This document shows, one piece after another, positions 31,167-37,017 of a stretch of 64,000 nucleotides of DNA. Position 1 is the first letter of the stretch, and each line of letters opens with the position of its first letter. The notes below the pieces were generated by a model. The model made no database searches and was not told the DNA's origin. It saw only the letters and a program-made list of their open reading frames with translations. The position numbers and the translations under genes were made by a program. The stretch comes from Albugo candida (taxonomy: Eukaryota): positions 62,001 through 126,000 of the forward strand of contig JBDOQK010000058.1 of the NCBI GenBank assembly GCA_040437565.1. The letters are read 5' to 3'.

Positions 31167-33503
31167 ATGTCATCCCTCCTTCCCTATGCTTCCATTCAAA
31201 AATTCATTCTCACCGCAATGGCGACGGGATTCGCTCATTATCTCGATTCCAAGCTGTTGCTATCCCTCGACCTTGAAAAGCTTCCTCTTCTCAAAGCGCA
31301 ATTCATCGCAAAAGACCACGCCCGACGCCACATTCTCCTCTGTGACCTCATGGAGCAAAGTGCGGATCAATGGCCCCAGAAATCCTTCCTCGAGTCTCCA
31401 CAGACCAAATACACATTCCACCAAGCAGATCTCTTTATGAATCAAGTGGCGCATTGGGGTCTCTCCATCAACCTCAAATCCGGCGATATCGTCGCTCTCC
31501 TCATGAGAAATCGACCAGAATATATTCTCCTTTGGCTCGGTCTCGGGAAAATCGGAGTGGTCACTGCATTCATCAACATCCGATTGAAGAAACCCGGTCT
31601 TCTCCACTCGTTCCGTGTCATTCAGCCGAGTATTCTCATCATCGATACCGAAATCGCCGATACAATGCTCGAGAGAATCGATACTTCCTTCTCGGGTCCC
31701 ATTCACACATTTTCGCCTCCGTCGTCTCCAAGCGATCACACATCGAATTCGCTGCACGGAATGCCAACAACGCGTCCAAATCGATCGATTCNNNNNNNNN
31801 NNNNNNNNNNNNNNNNNNNNNNNNNNNNNNNNNNNNNNNNNNNNNNNNNNNNNNNNNNNNNNNNNNNNNNNNNNNNNNNNNNNNNNNNNNNCTTTATGAA
31901 TCAAGTGGCGCATTGGGGTCTCTCCATCAACCTCAAATCCGGCGATATCGTCGCTCTTCTCATGAGAAATCGACCAGAATATATTCTCCTTTGGCTCGGT
32001 CTCGGGAAAATCGGAGTGGTCACTGCATTCATCAACATCCGATTGAAGAAACCCGGTCTTCTCCACTCGTTCCGTGTCATTCAGCCGAGTATTCTCATCA
32101 TCGATACCGAAATCGCCGATACAATGCTCGAGAGAATCGATACTTCCTTCTCGGGTCCCATTCACACATTTTCGCCTCCGTCGTCTCCAAGCGATCACAC
32201 ATCGAATTCGCTGCACGGAATGCCAACAACGCGTCCAAATCGATCGATTCGAAGTGGAATCACCACATCCGACACTGCACTTCTCATTTTCACAAGCGGA
32301 ACCACAGGTCTTCCCAAAGCGACTCGAGTCACACATTTCCAAAGTCTTTTACGCGGTATCCGCTTTCATCTTTTCATGCAAGTGAACGCATTCGATCGCA
32401 TTTTCACGTGTCTTCCATTGCATCATACCGCTGGCGGTGTCCTCACTCCAATTCTCGCAATTCTTTCGGGAGCAGCAATCATCATATTTCCAGGCTTTTC
32501 CTCTGATATTTGGACACATATTCGATCGACTAAAAGTACGATTCTCCAATACATTGGCGAAATGTGTTCTTACCTGATGGACGCATCTCCATCGCTGTTG
32601 GATGCTGAGAATCAGCTTCGAGCAGCATTTGGTAATGGGCTTCCACGTCGAATTTGGTCGGAATTTCAATCGCGATACCGAATTCCAATCATTTACGAGT
32701 TTTACGGCTCGACGGAATCGCCAATTGGACTTTTGAATCGATGTGCATCGTCTTTGGAACAAGGACATTTAGGTCGTCGTGGAATGCTCGATGTCGCGTT
32801 CTCAGGCACACGACTTCTTCGATACGATTTCCAACAGAATTCCCTCTTTCGACATCCGATCACCGGCGCGTATCAAAGCTGCCACGCCGACGAAATCGGT
32901 GAATTGGTCGTCTTACTGCATCCGTCGAATATGTGTCGACGCTTTGAAGGGTATTACAACGATCCAAACGCTTCCCAATTGAAACTTCTTCACAATGTAT
33001 TTCTTCCTGGCGATATGTATTTCCGCACGGGCGATCTCTTCCGAGTGGATCGAAAGCATTGCTGGCATTTCATCGATCGAATTGGAGACACATTTCGATG
33101 GAAAGGTGAAAATGTATCGACAGCTTTTGTGCGTGAGATATTGACTTCGTTTTCGGATTTCCGTGAAATTTGCGTTTACGGAGTCGAAATTCCATGCGTT
33201 TCCGGGAAATGTTGCATGATAGCAGTCGTTCTCCATCCACACAGAGATACCATCGACATTGACGCGCTGAGTGTCTTTGTAGAAGCCCATTTACCCGATT
33301 TCGCGATTCCAATTTTCGTCCGTCACGTCCGAGAAATTCCATCAACGTCGACATTTAAGCTGCAAACAAAAGGTTTTCAGACGGAAGGGATTCAAAATCA
33401 CGTCCTTTTCACGGATCCCTGCTGGTATTTCGATCGTCAATGTCGTCGATACATTCGTTTGCTTCCCAGAAGCATCACAAAAGTGCTCCAAAGTCGTCTC
33501 TAA
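31167..33503 (+). CDS. FATP: Fatty acid transport protein / very-long-chain acyl-CoA synthetase (true length ~625 aa after removing the gap duplication)
   Basis: IFTSGTTGLPKA, QYIGEMC, EFYGSTE, YFRTGDL, FIDRIGDTFRWKGENVST, and C-terminal SRL. Confidence 0.93.
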   Translation: MSSLLPYASIQKFILTAMATGFAHYLDSKLLLSLDLEKLPLLKAQFIAKDHARRHILLCDLMEQSADQWPQKSFLESPQTKYTFHQADLFMNQVAHWGLSINLKSGDIVALLMRNRPEYILLWLGLGKIGVVTAFINIRLKKPGLLHSFRVIQPSILIIDTEIADTMLERIDTSFSGPIHTFSPPSSPSDHTSNSLHGMPTTRPNRSIXXXXXXXXXXXXXXXXXXXXXXXXXXXXXXXXXXFMNQVAHWGLSINLKSGDIVALLMRNRPEYILLWLGLGKIGVVTAFINIRLKKPGLLHSFRVIQPSILIIDTEIADTMLERIDTSFSGPIHTFSPPSSPSDHTSNSLHGMPTTRPNRSIRSGITTSDTALLIFTSGTTGLPKATRVTHFQSLLRGIRFHLFMQVNAFDRIFTCLPLHHTAGGVLTPILAILSGAAIIIFPGFSSDIWTHIRSTKSTILQYIGEMCSYLMDASPSLLDAENQLRAAFGNGLPRRIWSEFQSRYRIPIIYEFYGSTESPIGLLNRCASSLEQGHLGRRGMLDVAFSGTRLLRYDFQQNSLFRHPITGAYQSCHADEIGELVVLLHPSNMCRRFEGYYNDPNASQLKLLHNVFLPGDMYFRTGDLFRVDRKHCWHFIDRIGDTFRWKGENVSTAFVREILTSFSDFREICVYGVEIPCVSGKCCMIAVVLHPHRDTIDIDALSVFVEAHLPDFAIPIFVRHVREIPSTSTFKLQTKGFQTEGIQNHVLFTDPCWYFDRQCRRYIRLLPRSITKVLQSRL
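31433..32250. repeat. Gap-flanking direct duplication (31433-31791 = 31892-32250)
   Basis: 359 nt repeated across the gap at 31792-31891, with one mismatch (C31499 / T31958). Confidence 0.9.
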
Positions 33504-35564
33504 TGCGAATGCAATCCCATTCCCCATCCAAGTTTCACGCGTTTATCGGGGCTATTGGACCTTCGTTCCTGGCTGGAAAAGCGTGTCATCGACGGCTTGG
33601 ATTGTGTGCACGCTCCAGGCGACGATGTGTGACGTAAAAGCGTCGGTAATGGCGGCGTCATTTCCGTTTGGATCGCAATTGGCGTTCGTTTTTCTTTCTT
33701 CTTTGACGTTCGAATAAGAGGTCTCATTTTTTTCTTTGCAGTCGAAAATGTCGTTTCCACGTCCGAAAATGTGAATGGCTCCATTTTCGATCGCATAAAT
33801 TCGAATTGTAAGAGCTTTTCCGCAGAGAATCGTTTGTTGGGATCTAATTGCAGCATTCCGCAAAGCATTTCGATCATTTCGACATCGACTTTGGCGGTCT
33901 CCAAAAGACTTTGCAGACGTGAATTCCCATCGATTTTCGGCGTCACCGTCGCGTACTTTGACAGTGTCATTGCGTCTTTCCACTCGCATTTCGGTGTGCC
34001 GCAAAGACGAAATATGAGATCCATTTGATGTGTCCAGGAATTCCCGTGCAATAAAAGCGATTTGAGGTCTAACAGTTGGAGACAAAGACATCCCAATGCC
34101 CAAATATCAGCTTTCCAAGTGAATTCTCGACTTCCCAGCAGCACTTCCGGCGCGCATGTGTGCATCCACGCGCCATTCAAATGTTCTTTACGCTCGGAAT
34201 CCGACAGAATATGTTGCTTCCCGCGAATTCTTCGGATGGCATGGAAGCCTCCAACGTGAACGCTCTTCTCGTACAGAAACACATGCGTAGAGGTAATCGA
34301 TCGATGCACAAAGCCATTGGAATGACACATTGCCAAAACGGATAAAAGCGCATGTAAAAGCCCACGAATTTGATGTTGGGAGAGTTTCTTCTTCGCTTCC
34401 AAACGACTCGCAAGTGTGTGTATCGGTTGTCGGAATGCGAGGTAATGCGCTTGGAGATCCATCGATGCATTTGTGCCGTCGGAAGGGAATACGATGCCGA
34501 GGAAATGTGAAAACAGACTCGGAGCCTCACACGCGAGCGTCAGCACATGCGCCAATTCCGAGAGACTTGCGGCCGGGACGCCATAGCGCATGTCGGAAGC
34601 CGACATCGAACGATACGGCCACGGCTGAAGATAGAGCTCACGAGGACCAAATGAAGTGATTGAAATGTGAGCGATAAAGCCGCGTTTTCGTACGCGTTCA
34701 ATTCGCATCAAATCGCGTGTTCGGATTCTCAATCCTTCGGAATCGCATCGACGCGGGAAATTGGAAGGTGTAACGAGTCGATTCTCTGCTTTCCAAACGC
34801 ATTCTTTAGCGATTTTCATGATTTCCTGACGCAACGAAAGTGATGTGACTGTGAGCACATTCGTTTCGTTCGTTAGAGACTCCAAATGCTTCCAATGATG
34901 CACCAAAATGGGAAGCAGGAAATCGAGACACCGAGTGACCTGACGCGCATCCGCGACATATTCCAATGATTCCCGACGCATACTCGCGTTTGCGATACAA
35001 ATGAGTGCCTGAACGATTGTTTCCACAGAGAAATACATCCACACGGAACATTGAAAGGCTTCCAGCAGTAAAAGTTCCAATTGCGTACGCACATCCGACT
35101 CCAAAGACGTCAATCGATTGCAAATTGCATACAAATTGTCAGTGTGAATATCATATCGCAACGTTTCGAGAATTTCCATTTGGCAGTCTGTGATTTGTGC
35201 GGCAAAGACACGAAATGCTTCTGTTTCGTGACGCAATTCGCGTCCAATTGTCGCGTCATTGATCGTAATTCGCCACGAAATAGCAATTCCTTTGGCTGTG
35301 TACGCGGCATTCACAAATTCAATCCATTTATATCGCAAGCCGTGTGCTTTGAGTGCGATATGAAGCACTCCAATTGCCATATATTCCATTTTGTCGACGT
35401 GCGCGCCGTGGAAATGTAAAAAACGATGGAATAACATCACAGCCGATGTACCGATCGATTCGTCCAATTTGAGTTTGCGTGCGATCCAAAGAAGCAGACG
35501 GATACAGCGCGTTCGAATGTGTGCGTGGGCATCGGATTTCTTCGGAAGTAAAGGAATCAGCCAA
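33500..35564 (-). CDS. Cyclin-box + CDK-like pseudokinase fusion protein (start probably inside gap 35565-35664)
   Basis: One uninterrupted frame. Cyclin fold: IARKLKL..TSAVMLFHRF..IALKA..QMEILETLRYDI. CDK-like domain: GVPAASLSEL, HRS, GGF, APEVLLGS, ADIWALGC, QMDLIFRLCGTP, MLQLDPNKRFSA. Confidence 0.85.
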
Positions 35565-35738
35565 NNNNNNNNNNNNNNNNNNNNNNNNNNNNNNNNNNNN
35601 NNNNNNNNNNNNNNNNNNNNNNNNNNNNNNNNNNNNNNNNNNNNNNNNNNNNNNNNNNNNNNNNGGAAAAAACTCGTACCAATTAATATTCCTATATTAA
35701 AAAATAATTGGCTTAAACTGTGCATTTTCAACCAATCA

Positions 35739-37017
35739 ATGAAAGCAATGCGCGAAATGGCGCGATCTCTTTCCGCTCGCGTTCTCAGCCTCCATTTCCG
35801 CTGCATTTCTCCATCCTCTCACTGCCACTACACACACAAAAAGACCACAGTCCTCTTCTCCATACCACGCGCTTCCAACCACACACACGCATCGTCCACA
35901 AAAGTGAATCTTGTGCGCATAATGTCGCCTTTTATCCTGTGTTTGCATCCCGATACATGTCGACACTTCTCCGCCGAACACGCCGCCAGTAATGAGAACA
36001 CATTGAAGCAGCTAAACAGTTTCATCGCAATCGCGTCGCTTGGATGTAATTCCGACATTCAAACACTTCAAAAACGCCTCCAAACGGATTCATTTCTCAG
36101 AAATCAAAACATAATGCGATTCCCATTGGCTTTCTATGTGTCGGAATCGAATGGAAATGAGACGTCTTCGGCATCCCAATGCATACGATACACAATCAAT
36201 ATCCCATCGTCGCTATTGCGTCACACCCTCGCAGCCGATAGTGTCCAATCGATCCATTCCCTCGCAGACAATTGGCGTCGAATTACAAAAAGAATTCTTT
36301 CCGATCTTTCAATTGTGACAAAAATCCCATTCGCTGAACTTTCGCAATTGCAATTCGAATGCGAGGAATCGCCCGATTTCGCGCAACTTGGATCGATTTC
36401 TCGTTATAATCGACGACAATTCCGGCAAGTGGTTGACACTGCATCTCTCCAAAGCTCAATTTGTCACGTAGGCAGCATCAACGCTTCCAAAAAGATTTCG
36501 ATAAAGTGCTGAGACGTGAGAAATCTTTAATGCATCCAAAAGCGACGGGAAGAGAAGATGTTCCGCGTACGTGGAAATGATTGATATCAGTGAGATGCTA
36601 ATTGTCTTCTTCTCAGTTCACAACCATTCCATTTTGCATTCGCTGTTGTCCGAACGCGTCCGAGTCGAAAAACAAGTTGTCATTTCATCAGAATCCATCG
36701 AAAGAGAACATCACTATCTTGTCTTTGCATGGATCGCCAATACGCTTCTCATCCATTTCGAGCAGCTCGGACTCCATCGATTGGTTTGGAATAAGATATC
36801 TCTTCTTGTAATGTGTCGAAATGAATCCATACGCCACGGAATTCCACAAATTGTGTACAATGAGAGAAATCCACGACAAGGAATGACACTTTTGCTTCCA
36901 TTTGAAATGGAAACAACGCAATTGATCGAATTTCTGAGCAAACAATCGCACATTTTGGCAAAAGCTTTGGAATCGAAATCGCTAATTGCTCCAAAAACGA
37001 GCAAATGGAATCAATGA
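35739..37017 (+). CDS. TCAIM-like (DUF4460) mitochondrial protein
   Basis: Arg/Ser-rich presequence, then PFILCLHPD..NENTLKQLNSFI. Two short introns at ~36425/36429-36471/36475 and 36568-36615. Confidence 0.7.

Follow-up and report, generated by a model that had tools for sequence, protein, structure and literature searches.

Human cyclin K and the cyclin-dependent kinases (CDKs) CDK12 and CDK13 are separate polypeptides that together form an active kinase acting on the C-terminal domain (CTD) of RNA polymerase II (Pol II). Cyclin and CDK have been placed in one chain, the cyclin in front, in engineered fusions of yeast cell-cycle proteins, and these indicate that an intramolecular complex of the two can fold. 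The methyltransferases Set2 and SETD2 are brought to elongating Pol II by an SRI domain, according to the available text of two papers (PMC10013772 and PMC10421102). For Phytophthora infestans, the available text of a kinome paper (Judelson & Ah-Fong 2010, PMC3019232) reports PITG_14137, in which a CDK-like kinase without activity is joined to a histone methyltransferase. It also reports four CDKs with a cyclin domain at the C-terminus, PITG_21617 among them, in which subdomain VIb shows an Asp-to-Asn change. Here we describe a gene of Albugo candida found on the minus strand of the window, that is, the whole stretch of 64,000 nucleotides analysed (assembly GCA_040437565.1, contig JBDOQK010000058.1, positions 62,001 to 126,000). 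Its product combines an AWS-SET-postSET methyltransferase with four further parts, which are, in this order, a beta-barrel, an RRM, a cyclin K-like domain and a CDK12/13-like pseudokinase, and the window holds the 3' two thirds of this single gene.

Gene architecture and the SET methyltransferase

The minus strand of the window contains a single stop-free frame of 687 codons between positions 33503 and 35563, closed by a stop codon at 33500-33502. Residue numbers given below are those of this 687-residue frame (P0001) unless another protein is named. Cyclin_N and Pkinase were both found in it above the Pfam cut-offs, and the proposal of the first-pass annotation that one frame encodes a cyclin followed by a CDK-like domain was borne out. 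That annotation had also placed the start at 35564 and described a self-contained cyclin-pseudoCDK, and neither of these statements held. Position 35564 is the edge of an assembly gap of 100 N (35565-35664) that abuts the upstream end of the frame and is not a protein start, and the window frame corresponds to residues 441-1127 of a protein led by a SET methyltransferase. This protein (P0002, 1127 aa) comes from an independent public assembly, carries an N-terminal SET domain (85.9 bits, Pfam) and is 99% identical to the window protein, from which it differs at 6 of 687 residues; a tblastn search located only its residues 441-1127 in the window. A contig of 4870 nucleotides from a public run spans 33000-35564 and extends 885 nucleotides beyond 35564. 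Its first 30 letters past that position, read on the minus strand, continue the frame as ALITFGQRLH, which are residues 431-440 of P0002, and therefore the gap hides the 5' part of the gene. From the N run, the tblastn result and the public contig, this hidden part amounts to at least 440 residues with SET/postSET, beta-barrel and RRM.

No joints were present in the public-run contigs over 33000-35564. Contigs from four public runs were compared with the window; they are of uncertain kind and show continuity of the sequence, not transcription, and one of the four runs covers 12 of 30 bins only. Among the ten public sequencing runs listed for this stretch none is recorded as RNA. Within the frame, the public contigs differ from the window by eight single letters, six of them synonymous and two changing a residue (G546E and V329I).

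Among named proteins, the nearest relative is one of Albugo laibachii Nc14 annotated as 'histone-lysine N-methyltransferase, putative' (P0006, 1414 aa), with 66% identity in the middle region and 74% over all matched stretches. From its Arg/Ser-rich N-terminus onwards it carries AWS, SET, the postSET cysteines, an RRM-like region, then Cyclin_N and finally Pkinase. By analogy with this orthologue, the A. candida gene probably reaches further 5', and the part hidden by the gap probably encodes AWS and an Arg/Ser-rich N-terminus as well. When the AWS-SET-postSET region of P0006 was compared with the PDB, NSD1-3, SETD2, ASH1L and Set2 matched with E values from 1.6e-47 to about 1e-39, whereas the enzymes for H3K4, H3K9 and H3K27 matched at about 1e-20. 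We infer from these scores a methyltransferase of the histone H3 lysine 36 (H3K36) type, to which NSD, SETD2, ASH1 and Set2 belong; NSD1-3 scored slightly above SETD2, so the subfamily is not settled.

A full-length AlphaFold2 (AF2) model of P0002, built with 42 aligned relatives, had a mean predicted local distance difference test score (pLDDT) of 75.7 and a predicted template modelling score (pTM) of 0.61. In it the SET domain is followed by a beta-barrel at residues 171-247 and by an RRM with the arrangement beta-alpha-beta-beta-alpha-beta at 307-405; the cyclin occupies residues 454-699 and the kinase residues 725-1031. Of 42 sequences, 40-41 carry the SET motif NHSC and all 42 have the catalytic Tyr, and the postSET Cys residues do not vary; in the aligned sequences the catalytic motifs of the SET domain are intact while those of the kinase are lost. 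No match to the SRI domain (PF08236) was obtained with Pfam in any family member scanned, and SRI is also absent from the rows of this family in the annotated-protein listing, in which the animal SETD2 rows carry it.

P0002 has an insertion of 22 residues in its SET domain (residues ~44-65) that no orthologue shares and whose pLDDT lies below 50. A gene call based on open reading frames (ORFs) has probably retained an unspliced in-frame intron here, and the true gene would accordingly have at least one intron.

The cyclin and pseudokinase domains

The cyclin K-like domain covers residues 14-262 (34778-35524; this and all the following features of the gene are on the minus strand). According to Pfam, the AF2 model and a profile search, it is all-helical, with two cyclin-box-like helix bundles. 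In the window protein Cyclin_N was matched at residues 8-139 with 27.9 bits against a cut-off of 23. It was also above the cut-off in P0002, P0007, P0011, P0012, P0013, P0026 and P0030, and below the cut-off or absent in P0006, P0008, P0009, P0010, P0014, P0027, P0034, P0039 and P0053. The same applies to three distant relatives (P0024, P0025 and P0209), for which Pfam gave no cyclin match. A single-sequence search of the window cyclin region against the PDB produced no matches at E values up to 10. A profile of ten family members compared with the same database placed cyclin K at the top (73 bits, E 2.7e-19), followed by cyclins T1/T2 (67-68 bits), L1/L2 (61-62 bits) and C (35 bits), with cyclins H (19 bits), D1 (18 bits) and A2 (15 bits) far below. 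By these profile scores the domain belongs to the transcriptional K/T/L type and not to the cell-cycle type, in agreement with the first-pass assignment as T/K/L-like. Cyclin K is also the natural partner of CDK12/13, the best match of the kinase that follows. The two domains are connected by a short linker, residues 263-278 (34730-34777), with pLDDT below 50 for residues 264-277; other oomycete orthologues have much longer insertions at this position.

Concerning the kinase, Pfam, phmmer and Foldseek delimit a CDK12/13-like pseudokinase at residues 279-591 (33791-34729) with a full N-lobe and C-lobe. Pkinase was matched at residues 383-590 with 67.5 bits against a cut-off of 31.7, and the match covers only profile positions 84-263, which correspond to the C-lobe. 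In phmmer searches the best PDB matches were CDK13 (5.1e-24, 87.9 bits) and CDK12 (1.2e-23), the next family reaching about 63 bits or less. An AF2 model of the window protein, made with 33 aligned relatives (mean pLDDT 80.4, pTM 0.78), shows the cyclin helices at residues 14-262, strands at 279-315, the alphaC helix at 331-346 and a C-lobe extending to about residue 591. A Foldseek comparison of this model with the PDB returned CDK12 chains at the top, with E values of about 5e-16 and TM scores on the target of 0.76-0.85 over ~340 columns, followed in order by CDK13, CDK9, CDK11 and CDK2. Since the predicted structure and the Foldseek comparison both give a complete kinase fold, the N-lobe is present even though HMMER leaves it unaligned.

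In spite of this complete fold, the elements needed for catalysis are lost. No GxGxxG was found between the first two kinase strands, either in the AF2 model or in the sequence. Strand beta3 (residues 308-315 of the model) includes the motif LQPWP at residues 312-316 (34616-34630), in which Gln313 stands at the site expected for the VAIK Lys and would replace it, judging from its position in the strand. Across an alignment of 42 sequences this LQxWP strand keeps Q in 34, W in 38 and P in 40, and the Trp-Pro pair appears as a signature of the family. The site of HRD reads HRS at 34298-34306 in the alignment to CDK13 and CDK12, with loss of the catalytic Asp. This column contains no Asp in any of 37 family representatives, which show S, F, Y, Q, H, N, T, V, A or W instead. 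The site of DFG reads GFH at 34241-34249 when aligned to CDK12/13, with loss of the Mg-binding Asp; the 42 sequences have G (30), S (4), C (3), N (2), A (2) or R (1) there and no Asp, which is missing as well from 37 of 37 aligned representatives. By contrast, the alphaC helix at residues 331-346 (34526-34573), equivalent to PSTAIRE in CDKs, contains AASLSEL in the AF2 model and keeps its Glu, the LSEL Glu being present in 41 of 42 sequences, and the APE motif (34145-34153) is kept with P and E in 42 of 42. With the Gly-rich loop, the beta3 Lys, the HRD Asp and the DFG Asp all gone, the domain is a pseudokinase and not a working CDK, and it is predicted to be incapable of conventional phosphotransfer.

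The first-pass annotation had recognised most of these changes. Its reading of HRS, at the same coordinates, of a missing Gly-rich loop and of conserved PSTAIRE-equivalent and APE motifs was confirmed, and the orthologue comparison that it called for showed that the fusion recurs and that each of the two Asp residues is missing in all representatives. It had given GGF at the DFG site, where the loss of Asp stands in either register although the register was one residue off. The loss of the VAIK Lys, which it had also proposed, agrees with Gln313 at that strand position; this comes from the position in the model, as the HMMER alignments lack the N-lobe.

Three further segments of the protein may be of interest. 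Within the activation segment (34181-34204) there is an acidic stretch, SDSERKEH, whose pattern S-D/E-x-E-R-K-E-H is conserved in Peronosporomycete orthologues and which might mimic a phosphorylated T-loop. After the kinase, the AF2 model places a polybasic helix at residues 605-625 (33689-33751), equivalent to residues 1046-1062 in the full model of P0002; it is perhaps a nuclear localisation signal or a C-terminal extension like that of CDK12. The protein ends in a disordered tail at residues 627-687 (33503-33685, pLDDT below 50) that finishes with KLGWGMGL (33512-33535). Orthologues from Albugo, Globisporangium, Pythium and Phytophthora share this ending, those of Saprolegniales lack it, and it may be a short linear binding motif.

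Distribution and conservation of the family

An HMMER search of 1.84 billion cluster representatives retrieved 49 proteins at E values of 1e-30 or lower. Among the 150 matches listed, local phmmer comparisons gave at least 11 oomycete-type representatives with SET and kinase domains, and ten of the 11 have a cyclin match, the exception being P0014. In at least 26 others, which are more distant and measure 1261-2178 aa, SET stands at the front and a kinase-like domain at the back. For P0026, P0027, P0030, P0034, P0039 and P0053, which are among the distant ones, the Pfam order is SET, Cyclin_N and the C-lobe of Pkinase. Named members were found in Globisporangium ultimum, Phytophthora boehmeriae, Pythium insidiosum, Achlya hypogyna, Aphanomyces stellatus and Thraustotheca clavata, and also in further Pythium and Globisporangium species, in Nothophytophthora and in 15 named Phytophthora species, P. 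infestans included. The gene is also present in the downy mildews, namely in three Peronospora species (P. belbahrii, P. farinosa and P. matthiolae), in Bremia lactucae and, as a partial model, in Plasmopara halstedii. The Plasmopara entry is annotated 'protein kinase domain, Cyclin-like superfamily', an automatic annotation that hints at the cyclin.

Outside the oomycetes, members were found in Chrysoparadoxa australica, in the brown alga Nemacystus decipiens and in the diatom Fistulifera solaris. The diatom protein, labelled SETD2 by its source, has the order SET, cyclin and pseudokinase, and those of the brown alga and Chrysoparadoxa show SET plus the pseudokinase. A protein atlas search with residues 800-1850 of P0026 returned mostly viral and generic kinase clusters and one cluster with SET and Pkinase. 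The same domain order is thus observed in separately assembled genomes of more than 30 species, and its distribution suggests an architecture that is older than the split of oomycetes and ochrophytes or that has spread between both groups.

Amino acid identity between A. laibachii and P0002 differs by part: SET domain, 92%; barrel and RRM, 79%; cyclin, 62%; pseudokinase, 73-74%; tail, 77%. Together with the conserved fold and motifs and with the synonymous character of six of the eight differences seen among contigs, these values point to purifying selection on a non-catalytic fold and not to decay.

Two of the proteins retrieved have unusual organizations. P0013 of T. clavata (1832 aa) begins with ~650 residues that carry TPR repeats and is named 'CCR4-NOT transcription complex subunit'; this extension is probably the product of two adjacent genes merged by gene prediction. 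P0005 (766 aa, from a metagenome) matches the window protein weakly and has the opposite order, with the kinase first and a weak Cyclin_N match behind.

As for the surroundings of the gene, the window contains nine gaps of 100 N and is therefore a draft scaffold. The ORF listing reads through the N run upstream of the frame and offers the ATG at 35806 as a start. We rejected this candidate: the sequence that precedes the frame is different in P0002 and at the end of the public contig. The segment 35665-35806, which the ORF listing joins to the frame, is unrelated to the SET-cyclin-pseudokinase gene, and a plus-strand frame past the gap (35667-36509) carries a DUF4460 domain (34.5 bits). On the other side lies a convergent plus-strand gene for an AMP-binding enzyme (31167-33503), whose frame ends at 33503, so that its stop codon overlaps that of the gene described here (33500-33502). 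That neighbour is broken by a gap of 100 N at 31792-31891, and ~170 identical residues are repeated on either side of it in what looks like an assembly duplication and not biology.

Possible roles of the module and comparison with known systems

We propose, with a probability of about 0.4, that the fossil cyclin-CDK pair docks the methyltransferase onto the transcription elongation machinery. In such a protein the cyclin would pack on its own pseudokinase as in the cyclin K-CDK12 complex, and the pair, no longer able to phosphorylate, would serve as a docking module. This module would hold the methyltransferase on the Pol II CTD or on other former substrates or partners of CDK12, the RRM would contact nascent RNA, and the whole would do the job of the SRI domain in Set2/SETD2. 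The proposal is based on the fact that both halves of the module are nearest to the CTD-kinase pair cyclin K-CDK12/13 and on the lack of SRI in the family members scanned. The first-pass annotation had suggested a scaffold, a decoy or a regulator of transcriptional CDKs. Scaffolding or targeting survives here as a service to the methyltransferase, while a decoy or regulator becomes less likely because the cyclin is tethered beside its own pseudokinase inside a chromatin enzyme.

Structure prediction gives modest support for a packed pair. The two-domain chain has a pTM of 0.78, a value that points to a defined arrangement of cyclin and pseudokinase relative to each other. A complex prediction of the cyclin versus the pseudokinase, made without alignments and for a pair whose like has been solved as complexes, scored 0.55, the best of three controls being 0.00; contacts agreed by at least 68% between runs and the partner pLDDT was at least 69. 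Of 78 solved complexes 51 reach the mark used, as do 2 of 108 mismatched pairs. However, only 5 of the 78 solved complexes reach it at 0.60 or less, yet all four passing mismatches of 180 do, and the pass may reflect memory of, or likeness to, the solved cyclin K-CDK12 complexes and not binding.

Several points weigh against the docking proposal. The docking role is drawn from likeness to known families and from a missing SRI domain, and the complex prediction, made for a textbook pair, gave weak support for the packing. The linker in Albugo has only ~16 residues, a length that may not suffice to span the canonical cyclin-CDK arrangement. Cyclin K is ahead of cyclin T by only ~5 bits, which is a narrow ranking, and the substitutions in the N-lobe were read from a predicted structure and not from an alignment. 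The H3K36 specificity is predicted from sequence similarity only, and the single transcript from continuous frames only, those of P0002, A. laibachii and the other gene models.

A more extensive form of the proposal appears doubtful to us. In it, a cyclin K-CDK12 pair would have been captured by a stramenopile H3K36 methyltransferase, stripped of catalysis and then retained, over hundreds of millions of years, as a reader or docking module for the Pol II CTD or the elongation complex that replaces SRI. Were it true, H3K36 methylation would have been coupled to transcription a second time and independently, by a solution in which a device for kinase-substrate recognition was turned into a functional replacement of SRI. 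The available text of a paper on the Phytophthora sojae methyltransferase PsKMT3 (PMC10013772) adds context to the docking proposal itself. It states that P. sojae has no SRI domain and treats the link between H3K36 methylation and transcription without SRI as an open point; about half of the H3K36 trimethylation (H3K36me3) is left after knockout of PsKMT3, and the PsKMT3 clade includes no Albugo homologue. The residual H3K36me3 and the lack of an Albugo homologue in that clade imply that another H3K36 enzyme must exist, and the SET-cyclin-pseudokinase family is a candidate for it.

Other explanations attribute a different task to the module. It could regulate the enzyme from within, by autoinhibitory binding and release of the SET domain or by sensing a ligand or nucleotide in the degenerate ATP pocket, and so tune the methyltransferase and not target it. 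Many pseudokinases are allosteric regulators of an attached or partner enzyme and SET domains of the NSD/ASH1 type have an autoinhibitory loop, both of which speak for internal regulation, as does the conservation of the fold, of the alphaC Glu (41/42) and of APE (42/42) despite the loss of catalysis. However, the full model, with its pTM of 0.61 and long low-confidence linkers, predicts no defined contact between SET and pseudokinase, and nucleotide sensing is at odds with the absence of the Gly-rich loop, the Lys and both Asp residues; we consider internal regulation unlikely. The same four independent catalytic elements missing together make it very improbable that the domain is still a kinase with an unconventional mechanism. 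There are precedents of 'pseudokinases' later found active, and the complete fold with its activation segment and APE would be in line with another one, but the residues that replace the HRD Asp vary freely among relatives, so that no substitute catalytic residue is conserved at that site.

The module could also act in trans, with the cyclin capturing or activating a separate CDK, or the pseudokinase serving as a decoy for cyclins, CDK inhibitors or substrates; kinase activity would then be brought to, or withheld from, the sites of H3K36 methylation. The cyclin domain is well conserved and of K/T/L type, and oomycetes encode separate cyclins of the C, K, L and M families and many CDKs (PMC3019232, in its available text). 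Against such action stand the short tether to its own pseudokinase and the joint prediction of both (pTM 0.78 and, weakly, 0.55 vs 0.00), by which the CDK-binding face would be occupied, and also the presence of the module always within a methyltransferase in the full-length members found. Action in trans thus seems even less likely to us than internal regulation. The least credible explanation, and one already contradicted, is that the fusion is an artefact. The frame would then be open by chance or belong to a pseudogene in decay, or else assembly or gene calling would have joined two genes. The draft state of the scaffold with its nine gaps, the duplicated sequence that flanks the gap of the neighbouring gene and the lack of RNA evidence would favour it. 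Yet the junction of cyclin and kinase lies in uninterrupted sequence and in independent joint-free contigs, the same order is found in the genomes of more than 30 species, and 6/8 contig differences are synonymous.

Returning to the docking proposal, the kinase-cyclin pair that marks elongating Pol II is the very one of which this methyltransferase contains a dead copy; this offers a concrete and testable hypothesis of coupling, and oomycete plant pathogens with working genetics are available for such tests. The family also shows, in a clean example from nature, how an entire cyclin-CDK holoenzyme has become a module without catalysis, which is relevant to the biology of pseudokinases. Database names such as 'CMGC/CDK protein kinase' are misleading for these proteins, which are most likely methyltransferases with a pseudokinase tail.

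Among the known systems, the closest is PITG_14137 of P. infestans, which has an N-terminal histone-lysine methyltransferase and a C-terminal inactive CDK-like kinase as in the present family. The P. infestans member P0190 (1501 aa) carries PF00856 and PF00069, the members of P. ramorum and P. sojae also having ~1500 aa, and we infer that P0190 is PITG_14137. The two descriptions differ in the cyclin domain, present in our family and not mentioned for PITG_14137 in the available text of PMC3019232. That text also states that orthologues of PITG_14137 are absent from other species, Hyaloperonospora arabidopsidis included. Contrary to this, we found the family in Albugo, Pythium, Globisporangium, Saprolegniales, three genera of downy mildews and three ochrophytes, and the reported absence from H. 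arabidopsidis may be an artefact of an early draft genome. The fusions of the PITG_21617 type, known from oomycetes and ciliates and represented among our proteins by P0005, are likewise natural one-chain combinations of kinase and cyclin that are probably inactive. They differ in that the kinase comes first, a single Asp is changed to Asn and SET is lacking, whereas in the present family the cyclin comes first and Ser occupies that position.

In our literature search for the cyclin part or for a wide distribution of the family, only the 2010 kinome paper was relevant; supplements were outside the scope of the search and may bear on this. A paper on diatom SETD2 (PMC10421102) describes, in its available text, extra conserved motifs IV-VII that are not named, and the word 'kinase' is absent from it. 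A search for terms in the text of a brown-alga chromatin paper (PMC13076208) found no mention of the features of this fusion. As far as the literature searched goes, the cyclin K-like domain between RRM and pseudokinase, the affinity to CDK12/13, the presence in Albugo, Saprolegniales, downy mildews and ochrophytes and the universal loss of both Asp residues appear to be new.

The resemblance to the human pair is closest at the level of the domains, as cyclin K-CDK12/CDK13 (4NST, 5EFQ, 5ACB) is the best match for the kinase sequence, for the cyclin profile and for the kinase fold. Unlike that pair, the present family has both parts in one chain with the cyclin first, has lost four catalytic elements and lies within a methyltransferase. 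The engineered cyclin-CDK fusions share the single chain, but they are artificial, active and of cell-cycle type, and they lack a chromatin enzyme. With Set2/SETD2 the family shares, with strong similarity, the AWS-SET-postSET core, and by analogy a role in co-transcriptional H3K36 methylation is presumed; in contrast to them, it has no SRI, and its C-terminal part is made of the RRM and the cyclin-pseudokinase module. The feature described here is the Albugo member of a known, uncharacterised family, and it is better called an H3K36-type methyltransferase with a fossil cyclin K-CDK12 module.

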